Source: a virus (lineage: Duplodnaviria > Heunggongvirae > Uroviricota > Caudoviricetes). Taken from it: 18,658 nucleotides of DNA. Below the pieces are notes generated by a model. The model made no database searches and was not told the DNA's origin. It saw only the letters and a program-made list of their open reading frames with translations. Every line of letters starts with the position of its first letter. Within the stretch, counting starts at the first letter, position 1. The position numbers were made by a program, and so were the translations under genes. Shown one piece after another: positions 12,657-18,658 of this stretch. Location: IMG/VR virus record IMGVR_UViG_3300028453_000031. The stretch is one strand, 5' to 3'.

Positions 12657-12812
12657 ATGAAGCAGCAAAAGGCGACGTTAATCGCCCTGATCGTCATCTG
12701 TTTAACCGTCATAGTGACGGCACTGGTAACGAGGAAAGACCTCTGCGAGGTACGAATCCGAACCGGCCAGACGGAGGTCGCTGTTTTCACAGTCTACGAA
12801 CCTGAGGAGTAA
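12657..12812 (+). CDS. hok: Hok/Gef family type I toxin
   Basis: 51-aa product MKQQKATLIALIVICLTVIVTALVTRKDLCEVRIRTGQTEVAVFTVYEPEE matches the Hok family pattern (TM helix then TRK.LCE.R.R.G..EVA....YE). AAGGAG 9 nt upstream. Confidence 0.85.
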   Translation: MKQQKATLIALIVICLTVIVTALVTRKDLCEVRIRTGQTEVAVFTVYEPEE

Positions 12813-12878
12813 GAGTGACCTGGGCGGGGTACTGATCCCATCCCCGCCCACCTCTGATGTGTCAGGCATCCTCAATGC

Positions 12879-12902
12879 ACCCGCACTTAACCCGCTTCGG
12901 CG
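12879..12902 (+). terminator. Rho-independent terminator after hok
   Basis: CCCGC-TTCG-GCGGG hairpin followed by TTTGTTTTTT. A further GGGCGGGG...CCCCGCCC inverted repeat lies at 12821-12848. Confidence 0.6.
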
Positions 12903-12986
12903 GGGTTTGTTTTTTCCTGGCATTCTGGTTTACAATTCGCACGTCAGCCTGAACAACTGGCACCTGCTGCGTCACCGGAGATCCCG

Positions 12987-13256
12987 ATGGCGCACGATAC
13001 CAGATTGCACAATTCTGCCGACCTTGCCAGCAGGCATGGGCGGCGTTCTCACACATTCAAATCTGACTGGTTCCAGCATGACCCGTGCACTGAAGAACAG
13101 GCCGAATGGCTGATTCAGTGCTACCGCAGACGTGGTTACGAGTTTCAGAAAGATCTCAGCTTCGATCGTCGTCACTGGATAATCTCCGTCAGGCTCCCTT
13201 ATTCCGAACGCCCACCGCGTTCATCCCGCACATACCAGCAACGTATCTGGAGGTAA
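12987..13256 (+). CDS. Hypothetical protein (89 aa)
   Basis: ATG with GGAG 8 nt upstream; stop lies one base before the GTG start of the next gene. Confidence 0.45.
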   Translation: MAHDTRLHNSADLASRHGRRSHTFKSDWFQHDPCTEEQAEWLIQCYRRRGYEFQKDLSFDRRHWIISVRLPYSERPPRSSRTYQQRIWR

Positions 13257-13257
13257 C

Positions 13258-14316
13258 GTGCGGGTATTACTTCGACCTGTTCTGGTACCGGAACTCGGGC
13301 TGGTGGTCCTTAAGCCGGGCCGTGAATCCATGCCGGTATTTCACAATCCCCGTGTGCTGGTGGAGCCTGAACCGAAAAGCATGAGTGGCCAGCCATCCGG
13401 GATCGTTCCTGTCGTTCGCCAGCCGCTGGCTGAGGATAAATCATTACTGCCATTTTTCAGCGATGAGCGGGTGATCCGTGCTGCTGGCGGTGCTGGTGCA
13501 CTGCCTGACTGGTTATTACGTCACGTGAAATCCTGTCAGTGGCCTCATGGTGATTATCATCACAGCGAAACCGTCATTCACCGTTACGGTACCGGCGCGA
13601 TGGTGTTGTGCTGGCACTGCGACAACCAGTTGCGGGAGCAGACATCTGATTCACTGGAGCAACTTGCTCAGCAGAATCTGGCAGCCTGGATGATTGATGT
13701 CATACGTCACGCAATGAATGGCACACAGGAGCGGGAACTGTCGCTGGCCGAATTATCCTGGTGGGCGGTCTGCAATCAGGTGGCTGATGCGCTTCCGGAG
13801 TCTGTATTGCGTCGTTCGCTGGGATTACCGGTGGAAAAAATCCGCTCCGTATACCGTGAGAGTGACATCATTCCGGGAGCGCAGACCTCCACCAGCATAC
13901 TGAAACAGCGCACAAAAAATATTACGCTACCGCCTCATACCCACCAGCAACAGACCCTACCACAGGAAAAGACGTTAGTAAGCATCGCCGTTGATCCGGA
14001 GTCTCCGGCTCAGTACCTCCAGCGCCAGAAACCACAACGGGAAGAGATGCCCGTATACACGCGCTGGGTAAAAACGCAGAAATGCATGACGTGTGGCAAT
14101 CAGGCAGATGATCCGCATCACATCATTGGTCATGGACTGGGAGGGATGGGAACAAAGGCTGACGATTTGTTTGTTATTCCGTTGTGCCGTAAATGCCATA
14201 ACGAACTGCATGCCGGAGTAAAAGATTTTGAAGAGAAACACGGCAGTCAGCTGTTGTTGCTGATTCGTTTTTTAATGCACGCGAGAAATTCGGGTGTTCT
14301 GAAGTGGAAAGCATAA
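13258..14316 (+). CDS. DUF968/YdfU-like protein with C-terminal HNH/YbcO-like zinc-binding nuclease motif
   Basis: C-terminus CMTCGNQADDPHHIIGHGLGGMGTKADDLFVIPLCRKCHNELH has the cysteine/histidine pattern of YbcO/DUF968-type phage nucleases. GGAGG ~4 nt before GTG 13258. Confidence 0.7.
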   Translation: MRVLLRPVLVPELGLVVLKPGRESMPVFHNPRVLVEPEPKSMSGQPSGIVPVVRQPLAEDKSLLPFFSDERVIRAAGGAGALPDWLLRHVKSCQWPHGDYHHSETVIHRYGTGAMVLCWHCDNQLREQTSDSLEQLAQQNLAAWMIDVIRHAMNGTQERELSLAELSWWAVCNQVADALPESVLRRSLGLPVEKIRSVYRESDIIPGAQTSTSILKQRTKNITLPPHTHQQQTLPQEKTLVSIAVDPESPAQYLQRQKPQREEMPVYTRWVKTQKCMTCGNQADDPHHIIGHGLGGMGTKADDLFVIPLCRKCHNELHAGVKDFEEKHGSQLLLLIRFLMHARNSGVLKWKA

Positions 14317-14553
14317 ATGACCGAACGCATAGAATTTGTTTTGCCTTACCCGCCAACGGTGAACACTTACTGGCGACGTCGTGACCTGGACAACATTCTG
14401 AAAGCGCCACTGGATGCGCTGACGCATGCAGGACTACTTATCGACGACGAGCAGTTTGATGAAATTAATATTGTGCGCGGTCTGCCTGTTCCTGGCGGAC
14501 GGCTTGGTGTGAAAATTTACGAAATAACGCATGGCGGGCAGGCAAAAGAATGA
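14317..14553 (+). CDS. rusA: RusA-family Holliday junction resolvase with apparent internal in-frame deletion (78 aa versus ~120 aa)
   Basis: N-terminus LPYPPTVNTYW and C-terminal part RRRDLDNILKAPLDALTHAGLLIDDEQ...GGRLGVKIYEI align to RusA as I recall it; about 40 central residues are absent. ATGA coupling at both ends. Confidence 0.65.
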   Translation: MTERIEFVLPYPPTVNTYWRRRDLDNILKAPLDALTHAGLLIDDEQFDEINIVRGLPVPGGRLGVKIYEITHGGQAKE

Positions 14554-15371
14554 AACTGGAAGATTTACCAAAATACTATTCCCCAAAATCACCGGGTCTG
14601 ACGGATGCATCGGCCTCAACGTCAAAAGATGCGCTGAGTATCACTGATGTGATGGCAGCGCAGGGCATGACACAGAATCGGGCTGAGATGGGGTTTTCTG
14701 CGTTCCTTGGGAAAATGGGCATTAGTATGAATGACAGAGAGCGGGCAACAGAATTGCTGACAGAATATGCACTCAGTCGGTGTGATCGCGTGGCGGCGTT
14801 AAGAAAACTCCCGGCAGAAATAAAACCGGCAGTGATGCGTATTATGGCTTCGTATGCGTTTGAAGATTATGCCCGTAGCGCGGCGAGCAAAAAACAGTGC
14901 CCCTGCTGTCACGGAAAAAAATTTATTGAAAGCGAGGTTTTTACAAACAAGATCCAGTATCCGGATGGTAAGCCGCCAGTGTGGGCAAAGTGCACAAAAG
15001 GCGTGTATCCGTCTTACTGGGAGGAATGGAAAAAAGTCAGGGAGGTGGTAAAAGTTGCCTGTCCGGAGTGTGGAGGGAAGGGAGAGGTATCCACTGCCTG
15101 TAAAGATTGTCGTGGGCGCGGTGTTGCCATTCATCGTGAAGAGTCGGAAAAACAGGGTGTGCCGGTTTTCAGAAACTGTCAGCGTTGTGGTGGGCGTGGC
15201 TATGAAAGATTACCTTCAACGGAGGCATTTAATGCCATATGTAATGTAACCGATGCCATATCTCTTGATACATGGAAAAAAACAGTTAAACGTTTTTACG
15301 ATACGCTGGTGGTGCAGTTTGATATTGAAGAAGCATGGGCAGAACAACAACTGAAAAAGGTGACCAGATAG
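14550..15371 (+). CDS. Late-gene antiterminator Q-like protein (multi-CxxC zinc binding)
   Basis: Position after rusA and before the late promoter and tRNAs. SPKSP...TDVMAAQGM N-terminal pattern and several CxxC pairs. Family assignment is from memory of Q-type proteins. Confidence 0.65.
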   Translation: MKLEDLPKYYSPKSPGLTDASASTSKDALSITDVMAAQGMTQNRAEMGFSAFLGKMGISMNDRERATELLTEYALSRCDRVAALRKLPAEIKPAVMRIMASYAFEDYARSAASKKQCPCCHGKKFIESEVFTNKIQYPDGKPPVWAKCTKGVYPSYWEEWKKVREVVKVACPECGGKGEVSTACKDCRGRGVAIHREESEKQGVPVFRNCQRCGGRGYERLPSTEAFNAICNVTDAISLDTWKKTVKRFYDTLVVQFDIEEAWAEQQLKKVTR

Positions 15372-15376
15372 CTTTG

Positions 15377-15404
15377 TTGATTTTTCCCGAATCTGTGGTA
15401 AATT
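15377..15404 (+). promoter_or_regulatory. Candidate late promoter (PR'-like)
   Basis: TTGATT (15377-15382), 16-nt spacer, TAAATT (15399-15404), directly downstream of the Q-like gene. Confidence 0.3.
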
Positions 15405-15450
15405 TGCCCTAACGATGGGCGTTTTATGCCTGACGTTAGAAGATTTTTAC

Positions 15451-15476
15451 ACCCGTCGCCAGGCGGGTTTTTTTAT
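15451..15476 (+). terminator. Candidate tR'-like terminator in the late leader
   Basis: ACCCG...CGGGT stem (5 bp, 8-nt loop) followed by TTTTTTTA. Confidence 0.45.
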
Positions 15477-15596
15477 GACTGAAATCACGCCAGTACATAA
15501 AATGTGCAGGTGGTTATTAATACCGGTCTTTCAGCTTGCTGGCTTTTTTGACAAGAGTTATTGGTGTGTCACGTTAACCGGAAAAGGGAAAAAGAC

Positions 15597-15794
15597 ATGC
15601 TGAAACAGCAGGATATGACCGAAACCGCCAGAGTGGTGTTTAATGAATTAAGCGTCACCGAACCGGCGACAGTCGGGGAGATTGCGCAGAATACTTACCT
15701 TTCACGCGAACGCTGCCAGTTAATACTGACCCAGCTTGTTATGGCGGGTCTGGCAGACTATCAGTTCGGTTGTTACAGACGCCTTCAGTCATGA
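15597..15794 (+). CDS. Small hypothetical protein (65 aa), possible winged helix
   Basis: MLKQQDMTETARVVFNELSVTEPATVGEIAQNTYLSRERCQLILTQLVMAGLADYQF...; first ORF after the late leader. Confidence 0.5.
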   Translation: MLKQQDMTETARVVFNELSVTEPATVGEIAQNTYLSRERCQLILTQLVMAGLADYQFGCYRRLQS

Positions 15795-15944
15795 AGGCTT
15801 TTTTATTTGTGGTAAATGGGCGGCTGGTGGGTGTTAGGGGCACTCACCAGCCATCTGCTCATGCGTCTGGATCACAAGCAAACCTCAGGCCCACTGCTTT
15901 GCGCAAAAGCAGAATGAGCCTATCAGAGACAGGCTTAATGATCC

Positions 15945-17003
15945 ATGTTTAATACTGTAAAAATATCCAGTTGTGAGTTGATCAACGCTGACTGCCTGGA
16001 ATTTATCCGGTCGTTACCCGAAAATTCTGTTGACCTGATAGTCACGGACCCGCCGTCCTTTAAAGTGAAGCCTGAGGGCTGGGATAACCAGTGGAAGGGC
16101 GACGATGATTACCTGAAATGGCTGGACCAGTGTCTGGCGCAGTTCTGGCGGGTGCTGAAACCTGCCGGAAGTCTTTACCTGTTCTGTGGCCATCGCCTGG
16201 CATCTGACATTGAAATCATGATGCGAGAACGCTTCAGTGTGCTGAACCATATTATCTGGGCGAAGCCGTCCGGACGCTGGAACGGGTGCAACAAGGAAAG
16301 CCTGAGGGCGTATTTCCCCGCCACAGAGCGCATTCTGTTCGCGGAACATTATCAGGGGCCGTATCGTCCGAAAGATGCCGGGTATGAGGCGAAGGGCAGG
16401 GCACTGAAACAGCATGTGATGACACCGCTGATTGCTTACTTTCGTGATGCGCGTGCTGCCCTGGGGATAACGGCAAAACAGATTGCTGATGCCACAGGAA
16501 AGAAAAACATGGTGTCGCACTGGTTCAGTGCCAGTCAGTGGCAGTTACCGAACGAAAGCGATTATCTGAAATTACAGGTGCTGTTTGCCCGGGTGGCAGA
16601 AGAGAAGCATCAGCGGGGTGAACTGGAAAAGCCCCACCACCAGCTGCTGGAGACGTATACTTCACTGAACCGGCAGTATGCGGAACTGCAGAGTGAATAT
16701 AAGCATCTGCGGCGGTATTTTGGCGTGACGGCGCAGATGCCGTACACGGATGTGTGGACGCATAAACCGGTGCAGTACTATCCCGGGAAACATCCGTGCG
16801 AAAAACCGGCAGAAATGCTGCAGCAGATAATCAGCGCGAGCAGTCGTCCGGGTGACCTGGTTGCAGATTTTTTCATGGGGTCGGGTTCGACAGTCAAAGC
16901 CGCGATGGCGCTGGGGCGGCGTGCAACTGGCGTTGAGCTGGAGACTGAACGTTTTGAGCAGACGGTCAGAGAAGTTCAGGATTTAGTCAGTCAGAACGGA
17001 TGA
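15945..17003 (+). CDS. Orphan DNA methyltransferase, beta-class amino-MTase (N6-adenine or N4-cytosine)
   Basis: Motif IV-like LIVTDPPSF near the N-terminus and motif I FFMGSGST near the C-terminus (beta-class order). No adjacent restriction endonuclease gene. Confidence 0.85.
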   Translation: MFNTVKISSCELINADCLEFIRSLPENSVDLIVTDPPSFKVKPEGWDNQWKGDDDYLKWLDQCLAQFWRVLKPAGSLYLFCGHRLASDIEIMMRERFSVLNHIIWAKPSGRWNGCNKESLRAYFPATERILFAEHYQGPYRPKDAGYEAKGRALKQHVMTPLIAYFRDARAALGITAKQIADATGKKNMVSHWFSASQWQLPNESDYLKLQVLFARVAEEKHQRGELEKPHHQLLETYTSLNRQYAELQSEYKHLRRYFGVTAQMPYTDVWTHKPVQYYPGKHPCEKPAEMLQQIISASSRPGDLVADFFMGSGSTVKAAMALGRRATGVELETERFEQTVREVQDLVSQNG

Positions 17004-17043
17004 TATTGCAGGATTAGTTACGTACCGTTATTATCCTGCGCCC

Positions 17044-17119
17044 GGCCCTTTAGCTCAGTGGTGAGAGCGAGCGACTCATAATCGCCAGGTCGCTGGTTCA
17101 AATCCAGCAAGGGCCACCA
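17044..17119 (+). tRNA. ileZ: tRNA-Ile (anticodon CAU, lysidine type), ileX/ileZ-like
   Basis: 76 nt, 7-bp acceptor stem GGCCCTT/AAGGGCC, anticodon loop CTCATAA, T-loop TTCAAAT, 3' CCA. Near-identical to E. coli tRNA-Ile2 as I recall it. Confidence 0.85.
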
Positions 17120-17128
17120 TATCACATA

Positions 17129-17205
17129 CCGCCATTAGCTCATCGGGATAGAGCGCCAGCCTTCGAAGCTGGCTGCGCGGGGTTCGAGTCCTCGATGGCG
17201 GTCCA
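17129..17205 (+). tRNA. tRNA-Arg (anticodon UCG)
   Basis: 77 nt, acceptor CCGCCAT/ATGGCGG, D-arm GCTC/GAGC, anticodon stem CCAGC/GCTGG with loop CTTCGAA, T-arm CGGGG-TTCGAGT-CCTCG, 3' CCA. Resembles the rare-codon Arg tRNA (argO-like) of Stx phages. Confidence 0.8.
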
Positions 17206-17483
17206 TTATCTGCATTATGCGTTGTTGGTTCTGATGAGTGAATCATTGTCTTTTGAGCAACAGGCTATCATATAAGATAGCCTCAGACTTCCTTGTTTAT
17301 TCTCGCCGGATGCTTCGTAGATATTTGCAGGCATCTGTATGCAGGGGTATTATTGCGGCATATATCATCCGGAAAAATAAAAACTACATGCTGATCCGGA
17401 GATGATAGTTACAAGTCCTCCCGGATCCCGCATATTTACTATATTTTATAGATAATTGTTCTTGTTAATATGGAGATGGATAA

Positions 17484-17912
17484 ATGTATTGCCGTGCTGT
17501 ACCGGTTCTTGTTTTGATATTAGCCAGTCTGACAACTGGCTGCACAAAAGATGTATCGACAAATAATCATGATGCTTCTCTGTATCACTCAGATAAATTA
17601 ATAAAGTCGCAAAATTTGAGCTCATCGGAACGTACCCCTGATGCCAGTGAAGAAATCCGGCAGTATGCCATTCAGGTCAGGAAAGCCATAGAAGAACAGT
17701 TAAAGGATGCGAGTAAGTATTCAGGAAAAGAGTGTTCACTGAGAATGTATATGGCCCCGAATGGTCTTCTGCTACAGGTTAAAAGAGAAAGCGGTGATCC
17801 CGATTTATGTCGTGAAGCGATGAATGCAGTAAAGAATGCTGATATACCATCACCACCGTCTTCAGGAGTATATAAAGCATTTAGAAATGGCGTGCTGGAT
17901 TTTAAACTCTGA
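17484..17912 (+). CDS. Lipoprotein with TolA C-terminal domain (domain III)-like mature region; moron candidate
   Basis: Signal peptide with lipobox LTTGC. Residues ~57-142 (YAIQVRKAIEEQLKDASKYSGKECSLRMYMAPNGLLLQVKRESGDPDLCREAMNAVKNADIPSPPSSGVYKAFRNGVLDFKL) align with the TolA C-terminal domain, including both cysteines. GGAG 8 nt upstream; markedly AT-rich gene and flanks. Confidence 0.8.
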   Translation: MYCRAVPVLVLILASLTTGCTKDVSTNNHDASLYHSDKLIKSQNLSSSERTPDASEEIRQYAIQVRKAIEEQLKDASKYSGKECSLRMYMAPNGLLLQVKRESGDPDLCREAMNAVKNADIPSPPSSGVYKAFRNGVLDFKL

Positions 17913-17942
17913 CAGGGGGAGAAGATTTTCTCCTGTCCTGAT
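17913..17942 (+). terminator. Hairpin after the lipoprotein gene (weak terminator candidate)
   Basis: GACAGGGGGAGAA...TTCTCCTGTC imperfect inverted repeat directly after the stop. Confidence 0.35.
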
Positions 17943-18202
17943 GATTTTGGGGCGCTGGAAAGATATTGTGCTGTGAAGTGTTAAATCCCTCACAATTCAG
18001 TAAGTTGACAGTTGCCTGTCAGACTGAGCATTTGTTAAAAAAATTTCGCATGGTGAATCCCCCTGTGCGGAGGGGCGACTGGTGAACGGTATGATCTCTT
18101 TGATGATCGTAAGCGAGAATACGCGGGTTTGGTGTCACCGGGCTGAACTCACCGGGAGGCACCCGGCACCATGCTCATGGTGATACAGAAATGCGGCTTC
18201 AG

Positions 18203-18228
18203 CCCCTCTCCGGAGGGGCTTTCTTATG
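18203..18228 (+). terminator. Rho-independent terminator (plus strand)
   Basis: GCCCCTC-TCCG-GAGGGGC perfect 7-bp stem followed by TTTCTTAT. Confidence 0.5.
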
Positions 18229-18232
18229 GACA

Positions 18233-18261
18233 AAAAAAGCCCGCGCTGGGAGACGCGGGCG
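18233..18261 (-). terminator. Rho-independent terminator (minus strand)
   Basis: GCCCGCG...CGCGGGC stem preceded on the plus strand by A7, i.e. a U-run on the minus strand. Confidence 0.5.
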
Positions 18262-18382
18262 GCAAGGAATAAACAATAAAACGTGAAGTAATACTTCAAC
18301 TGGCGAATAATACCCGACAGTAATCACTCTGCGCAATAGCGTGGCCTTTTTCGAATTGCGGGCTGTAGTCTCCCTTCTGCCG

Positions 18383-18543
18383 GGTGTCCTGGTTGCAGAT
18401 TTCTTCATGGGGTAGGGTTCGGCAGTTAAAGCAGCGATGGCGCTGGGGCGTCGTGCAACTGGCGTTGAGCTGGATACCGGGCGTTTTGAACAGACTGCGC
18501 AGGAAATCAGGGATGTATTTAGCGGGAGCGCTTTGCAGAAGTA
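18383..18543 (+). pseudogene. Degenerate duplicate of the methyltransferase 3' end (motif I region) with an in-frame stop
   Basis: Aligns to 16851-17003: CTGGTTGCAGATTTCTTCATGGGGTAGGGTTCGGCAGTTAAAGC versus CTGGTTGCAGATTTTTTCATGGGGTCGGGTTCGACAGTCAAAGC. Encodes LVADFFMG*GSAVKAAMALGRRATGVELDTGRFEQT... with TAG replacing TCG. Confidence 0.7.
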
Positions 18544-18658
18544 ATCTCCCAAAATGCCATTTTTGGAATATACTGGTATTAAGTCTTTTTGCTCAGGTTA
18601 ATTCAAAATGGATGTTGCCTGCTCTGTGGTCCTGATTCGCTATCCGATAGATATTTTT

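Follow-up and report, generated by a model that had tools for sequence, protein, structure and literature searches.

What does it mean for a phage-borne adenine methyltransferase to carry serine where its catalytic motif would be expected to carry an aromatic residue? The DNA analyzed here (IMG/VR record IMGVR_UViG_3300028453_000031, 18,658 nucleotides, hereafter the window) contains on its plus strand, at 15945..17003, an ATG-initiated open reading frame of 352 codons whose motif IV ends in serine, where the consensus is (D/N/S)-P-P-(Y/F/W) (PMC7544214). A first reading made from the letters alone, below the sequence-only reading, took the gene for an orphan beta-class methyltransferase with the aromatic residue of motif IV shifted by one position, and suggested that specificity or activity might be altered. 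Whether the serine truly occupies the catalytic position, whether the allele is real, and what it would do to the enzyme are separate matters, and we consider them in that order.

The encoded protein matches Pfam family PF01555 (N6_N4_Mtase) over residues 29-340 with 144.3 bits (E = 7e-42), above the curated threshold of 26.7 bits, and PHROG DNA methyltransferase families match it with E values of 1e-101 to 1e-104. Direct reading of the codons GAC CCG CCG TCC TTT at 16047-16061 gives D-P-P-S-F for residues 35-39; motif IV itself, D35-P36-P37-S38, spans 16047..16058 on the plus strand, with TCC as codon 38 at 16056-16058, and the fourth position of the motif is thus Ser38 and not an aromatic residue. 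Motif I, the AdoMet-binding FxGxG loop, is intact as F310-M-G-S-G314 (16872..16886, plus strand, direct reading) and pairs with motif I of M.BceJIV, M.RsrI, and CcrM in solved-structure alignments. Between the two motifs, residues ~160-237 (16422..16655, plus strand) form the target-recognition region (TRD), assigned from a weak Pfam HTH_3 match at residues 167-195 and from likeness to M.EcoGII, whose residues 160-237 make up a four-helix TRD with a helix-turn-helix (HTH) (PMC11551740). The order of these elements, IV, then TRD, then I, is that of the beta class, and frame, AdoMet loop, and TRD are all intact. In these respects the sequence-only reading is borne out: the Pfam score and motif order make the protein a beta-class methyltransferase, the codons spell TDPPSF, and motif I is conventional. 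The possibility that the true motif IV lies elsewhere was considered and ruled out, both Pfam and the solved-structure alignments placing it at residues 35-38.

How unusual serine is at this position can be judged from two sets of homologues. The close set comprised the 120 best clusters at 90% identity, 73-95% identical to the window protein and coming from Escherichia, Citrobacter, Klebsiella, Salmonella, and other genera; every one of the 120 has DPPY followed by Phe. The diverse set was drawn from the best 150 representatives at 50% identity out of 1.84 billion proteins, 134 of which cover the motif. Read by motif, these 134 consist of 117 with DPPY, 6 with DPPF, 7 with Tyr behind altered prolines, 3 with a one-residue gap before the aromatic, and a single DPPQ protein (P0170, 604 aa), the one clear natural non-aromatic case. 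Tabulated by position, the same proteins have Tyr in 123 cases, Phe in 6, Gln and Gly in one each, and a gap in 3, the Gly and the three gaps being sites where the pairwise alignments place a gap beside the aromatic residue. Serine was found at the aromatic position in none of the 254 homologues, and the family alignment, which the sequence-only reading had named as the way to see whether serine is tolerated, speaks against tolerance in both sets (0/134 diverse, 0/120 close), while the DPPQ relative indicates that non-aromatic residues are not absolutely barred. The relatives with altered prolines (P0157, P0180, P0197, P0204, P0226, P0244, and P0122, with forms DFPY, DIPY, DWPY, DYPY, DGPY, and DLLY) keep the Tyr; they and the DPPQ protein may likewise be inactive or unusual family members.

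The phenylalanine that follows Ser38 had been regarded as the displaced aromatic. In the HMMER alignment with M.BceJIV (8urk, E = 3e-24), the closest solved structure, Ser38 falls ungapped on the Tyr of DPPY, and the weaker HMMER alignment with M.RsrI alone opens a one-residue gap that pairs Phe39 with the Tyr. Because DPPYF is invariant in the 120 close homologues, where Phe39 adjoins an intact Tyr38, Phe39 is a constant family residue beside the catalytic Tyr and not a catalytic residue that has moved. Thus, the location given to motif IV stands, but the canonical Tyr of the family belongs at the very residue that is now serine, and the notion of a shifted aromatic has to be given up.

The route by which serine came to this position was short. 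The closest complete genome, E. coli HY220605 (locus L001), shares 99.6% identity with the window across the gene and 99.56% across positions 15500-18658. The two genes differ by 4 bases, including TAC (Tyr) in L001 against TCC (Ser) in the window at 16057. Since this closest relative keeps TAC, Ser38 is derived, by a single A-to-C transversion of the catalytic Tyr codon (TAC to TCC), with the C at 16057 as the derived base. The changes specific to the allele, Y38S, A160T, and V265M, are all non-synonymous, and Val265 is otherwise invariant among the close homologues. A phase-variable switch was also entertained and dropped, neither a repeat tract nor a homopolymer being present around codon 38.

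A codon a single base away from the canonical one could also reflect a sequencing or assembly error at base 16057; where else the allele occurs bears on this and on its frequency. In 5,426 complete E. coli genomes, a 33-mer probe centered on the variant base, which detects only alleles with identical neighboring bases, had no match with TCC; with TAC it matched 1,267 of these genomes, at 1,486 places. The Y38S gene has at most 99.6% identity to any complete genome and at most 98.0% to any phage record in the collection. A degenerate pattern for TDPPSFKVKP had no match in 185,579 species-representative (GTDB) genomes and none in JGI metagenome contigs; in IMG/VR it matched one contig, L005 (IMGVR_UViG_3300021279_000024, 5,989 bp), which is 100% identical to window positions 12670-18658, ends at the same base, and probably shares one source with the window. 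The exact 352-aa Y38S protein carries several NCBI accessions; it is present on at least 24 public E. coli contigs, on 48 contigs according to the cluster table, and in 55 blocks of a position index.

These exact-sequence look-ups rule out the sequencing error, to which we now assign practically no probability: the identical protein lies on dozens of independent NCBI, JGI, and Logan contigs under several accessions, and the gene DNA is identical to that of the window in three independently assembled genomes with different flanks (loci L002-L004, fetched from GCA_025848435.1, GCA_020149125.1, and GCA_023296785.1). Because the flanks of these carrier loci differ, one of them having another Q family (PF06530) and a DnaB-type replication module, the assemblies cannot have come from one read set. 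All three match the window exactly from about base 15869 on and diverge upstream; the identity extends for ~2.4 kb in L002, with one difference at 18232; in L003 it reaches the window end, and in L004 it runs up to base 17040, where the contig stops. The allele is therefore present in at least four flanking backgrounds, and this, along with the many draft assemblies, also rules out a mutation private to one genome. The allele is thus rare but genuine; it arose once, has since recombined into several prophage backgrounds, and is found in a minority of E. coli prophages, and since the carriers show zero variation, it is young.

Identification of the family to which the allele belongs gives the question its functional setting. 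M.EcoGII, a beta-class enzyme of 349 aa with a paralogue, M.EcoGI, was described by Murray et al. (2018) and comes from a prophage in E. coli O104:H4 C227-11; it methylates adenine in any context, in double-stranded DNA, single-stranded DNA, RNA/DNA hybrids, and RNA, it is unexpressed in the lysogen, and its constitutive expression sickens cells (PMC5778455). Against the published M.EcoGII, 326 of 348 residues of the window protein are identical, 93.7%, a figure that is approximate and a lower bound because the reference was a machine-read copy of Table S1 of PMC11551740 with evident reading errors (e.g. NHHIW, RRRA); among the members of the 90%-identity cluster that were fetched, there was no clean M.EcoGII sequence. 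Over residues 1-159 the only differences are L2F and Y38S, once one evident reading error of the printed copy is set aside. The two proteins are alike in their ~94% identity, length class (349-352 aa), N-terminal catalytic lobe, HTH-type TRD, C-terminal FxGxG loop, prophage location, and orphan status. They differ in having DPPS in the window protein against DPPY in M.EcoGII, in a few further linker substitutions (residues 232-265), and in the C-terminal tail, which reads ..LVSQNG against ..LIV in M.EcoGII. The window protein and the 349-aa forms share one 90%-identity cluster, and proteins of ~93% similarity were classed as 'M.EcoGI/GII, nonspecific' in REBASE-based methylome work (PMC6602927). 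It has, then, the sequence closeness of the M.EcoGII/M.EcoGI group but not its canonical DPPY: by descent, it is an allele of the M.EcoGII family, and by function, probably not an active member.

Other relatives agree with this placement. The enzyme of phage 1720a-02 has been named as a close relative of M.EcoGII (PMC5778455), and the 1720a-02 methyltransferase is the top phage match of the window gene, at 98.0% nucleotide identity; the genes annotated 'DNA methylase' in 1720a-02 and the Stx2-converting phages (e.g. Stx2a_WGPS2 gp29) lie at 97-98%. The gene family is widespread: of the 5,426 complete E. coli genomes, 1,992 have it, and a single genome may contain as many as 7 copies. M.BceJIV of Burkholderia cenocepacia (PDB 8URK) shares the beta-class fold, and its DPPY and FxGxG regions align with those of the window protein; unlike the M.EcoGII group, it is GTWWAC-specific and acts as a chromosomal epigenetic regulator, and it has another TRD and an intact Tyr.

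The surroundings of the gene suggest when it would be expressed. In content (integrase, excisionase, exonuclease, immunity region, replication genes, DUF968/HNH, and RusA) the window corresponds to the left arm of a lambdoid prophage. The DUF968/HNH gene, upstream of the methyltransferase at 13258-14316, is a standard nin-region gene. The gene for the antitermination protein Q occupies 14550..15371 (Pfam PF03589 Antiterm, E = 5e-52; PHROG Q-like) and, like the features downstream of it, is on the plus strand. A terminator scan located two terminator-like hairpins with T-runs after it, one with its hairpin at 15451-15468 (15451..15476 with the T-run) and the other at 15781-15798 (15781..15806 with the T-run). 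The first opens the conserved methyltransferase module; its stem, compared in four contexts (the window, L001, L002, and L004), is kept despite changes on both arms, and the contexts that share it carry different Q genes. The segment 15451-15476 is the mosaic junction at which the Q module gives way to that of the methyltransferase. The second hairpin lies just upstream of the methyltransferase and is kept in 4/4 aligned contexts. Bracketed by the two hairpins is a conserved 65-aa ORF (15597..15794; phrog_331, function unassigned, E = 1e-37; no match in Pfam), which always precedes the methyltransferase, in L001, in L002-L004, and in a further related locus, L006, and which could be a small regulator of the methyltransferase module.

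On the other side of the gene, ARAGORN finds two tRNA genes (17044..17205) with anticodons CAU and TCG. The CAU tRNA is called Met by ARAGORN, and its RefSeq homologue in L001 and L006 is tRNA-Ile (ileZ); the RefSeq homologue of the TCG tRNA in the same two loci is tRNA-Arg (argN). The local order is thus Q, hairpin, 65-aa ORF, hairpin, methyltransferase, tRNA(CAU), tRNA-Arg(TCG), and a lipoprotein gene. Because of the succession of Q, terminators, methyltransferase, and tRNAs, we place the methyltransferase in the Q-dependent late transcript, a placement that agrees with the silence in lysogens reported for M.EcoGII. The late operon had been recognized by the sequence-only reading, and the position of the gene 3' of antiterminator Q in a lambdoid prophage supports it. 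The absence of a partner endonuclease, claimed by the same reading, also holds over a wider scope: neither the window nor the longer related loci contain a restriction endonuclease partner; in those related loci the neighbors of the methyltransferase include an AraC-type HTH protein, a NanS-p esterase, and lysis genes, and the locus does not have the makeup of a Type II restriction-modification system.

What would the loss of the motif IV Tyr do to such an enzyme? In M.BceJIV the flipped adenine stacks between the DPPY Tyr and a Thr, and the Asp side chain together with a Pro carbonyl holds N6 in line with the AdoMet methyl (PMC11380664); the same general role is given to the motif IV Tyr in PMC7544214. 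The Y107G mutant of the beta-class HP0593 enzyme is catalytically inactive (PMC3036652), and the same paper cites lowered activity for the TaqI Y108A/G mutants and, for EcoP1I and EcoP15I, evidence that the Tyr matters. The engineered mutants of HP0593, M.TaqI, and EcoP15I/EcoP1I resemble Y38S in that the same motif IV residue is exchanged for a small side chain. They differ in being laboratory mutants of sequence-specific enzymes, whereas Y38S is a natural Ser allele of a non-specific family, and the published replacements are Gly or Ala in other enzymes, some of which retain residual activity (PMC3036652).

The window gene is a lambdoid-prophage copy of the M.EcoGII/M.EcoGI family, and by analogy with these enzymes we consider it likely that Y38S leaves it inactive or strongly impaired. 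The intact members of the family are orphan beta-class N6-adenine methyltransferases that act whatever the surrounding sequence and remain silent in the lysogen; they would be turned on late, once the prophage is induced, to shield the phage DNA from restriction. One A-to-C transversion at 16057 turned Tyr38 of the catalytic DPPY loop into Ser. The Tyr normally stacks on the flipped-out adenine and aligns its N6 with the AdoMet methyl; since Ser cannot stack, an enzyme without Tyr38 is expected to be inactive or strongly impaired, that is, Y38S would be a null or strongly weakened allele. Its persistence fits an accessory gene that the lysogen does not need and that does harm if expressed: given that the intact enzyme is toxic when expressed and that the lysogen can do without it, Y38S would be neutral or mildly favored in a resident prophage. 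We infer here both the loss of activity and the neutrality or mild advantage of that loss. As to the role put forward by the sequence-only reading, anti-restriction is what is generally accepted for intact members (PMC5778455) and holds to that extent. Altered specificity, which the same reading had offered, is unlikely because intact M.EcoGII, ~94% identical, is already without specificity and because replacement of the Tyr cuts activity in related enzymes, the mutants being inactive or weak (PMC3036652).

One might argue instead that DPPS is a working variant of the motif, with Phe39 taking over the stacking on the base and with altered kinetics or substrate preference; in one version of this scenario, the enzyme would be weakened so as to be less toxic yet still protective. 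Phe39 directly follows Ser38 and could in principle give partial stacking, HMMER does align it with the M.RsrI Tyr through the one-residue gap, the ORF and all the other motifs are intact, the allele persists in several recombinant contexts, and some Tyr mutants of other adenine methyltransferases are reduced and not dead (PMC3036652). Indeed, an intact ORF and survival through recombination into at least four backgrounds may signify selection for some retained function. However, Phe39 coexists with Tyr38 in each of the 120 close homologues and so has a role of its own, Ser is missing from all 254 homologues, the ungapped M.BceJIV alignment puts Ser38 on the catalytic Tyr, and the allele is rare and one base off the canonical codon. 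On balance, we regard a functional variant as rather improbable.

A second alternative, to which we give still less weight as a very unlikely one, is that the protein is catalytically dead but kept, either to damp an active paralogue by pairing with it or to serve only as a nucleic-acid-binding factor. As beta-class methyltransferases act as dimers, the Y38S protein could pair with intact M.EcoGII-type paralogues carried by other prophages of the same cell, and such heterodimers would damp or redirect toxic, non-specific methylation; as a retained pseudo-enzyme, it could otherwise act late in phage development as a non-catalytic, adenine-flipping binder of DNA or RNA, and for either form of this pseudo-enzyme role the chances seem slender. 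Partners with eroded motifs, MTA9 and METTL14, do exist among dimerizing beta-class enzymes (PMC7544214), M.EcoGII elutes as a dimer (PMC11551740), E. coli genomes hold up to 7 family copies, and the catalytic lobe (residues 1-159) otherwise differs only at L2F, with frame and AdoMet loop intact. Against this, there is no sign of purifying selection after the mutation, the three allele-specific changes are all amino-acid changes, and the rarity of the allele fits drift.

Returning to Y38S as a probable loss-of-function allele, we find in the neighborhood several features of the kind that a prophage under little selection might accumulate. The RusA gene (14317-14553, plus strand) has lost 48 codons in frame between two Arg-Arg-Arg repeats, so that its product is 78 aa long where that of L001 has 119 aa; the short form, which is also found in L002 and L003, is probably non-functional and points to decay of the prophage. 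At 18380-18529, on the plus strand, lies a 50-codon remnant of another methyltransferase of the M.EcoGII type. It shares 74% identity with residues 302-351 of the intact methyltransferase and 83% at the DNA level over 143 nt, and has a TGA stop within its FxGxG loop (FFMG*GS); the homologous stretch in L001 is annotated in RefSeq as a methyltransferase pseudogene. In the PHROG collection the N-terminal half of the methyltransferase and its C-terminal half belong to different families, and many truncated representatives exist, which suggests that disrupted copies are common. The allele-specific changes, the RusA deletion, the methyltransferase remnant, and these signs of disrupted copies are consistent with relaxed constraint, though none of them is conclusive.

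The broad biological weight of these observations is small, as the gene family, its Stx-type prophage position, and its biochemistry have been described before, and the Y38S protein in its exact form is already public under a generic annotation. That annotation matters in one respect, in that pipelines label the Y38S allele 'site-specific DNA-methyltransferase' despite the lost catalytic Tyr; with this Tyr lost, methylome predictions for carrier strains should not count the allele as active. M.EcoGII is a widely used reagent, and the Y38S allele, which is natural and otherwise intact, offers a candidate catalytic-null control that needs no engineering. The allele also provides a small data point that toxic prophage methyltransferases may be disarmed by missense as well as by frameshift.

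Lastly, two minor observations concern a relative of the protein and the far end of the transcript. P0001, a close homologue of 386 aa, has a 34-residue internal tandem duplication, in which YKHLRRYFGVT...GKHPC is repeated, just N-terminal of the C-terminal catalytic half. The lipoprotein gene that follows the tRNAs in the window (17484-17912, plus strand) encodes a predicted lipoprotein of 142 aa with a TolA C-terminal domain (PF06519, E = 6e-23; phrog_5772, function unassigned). Stx2a phages have the same order of Q, 65-aa ORF, methyltransferase, ileZ, and argN, but in Stx2 phages the tRNAs are followed by argO and stx2AB, whereas in the window argO is absent and the TolA-C lipoprotein gene stands there. 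The lipoprotein gene thus occupies the exact place of stx2AB, 3' of the tRNAs in the late transcript, and it may be a phage moron touching the Tol system.
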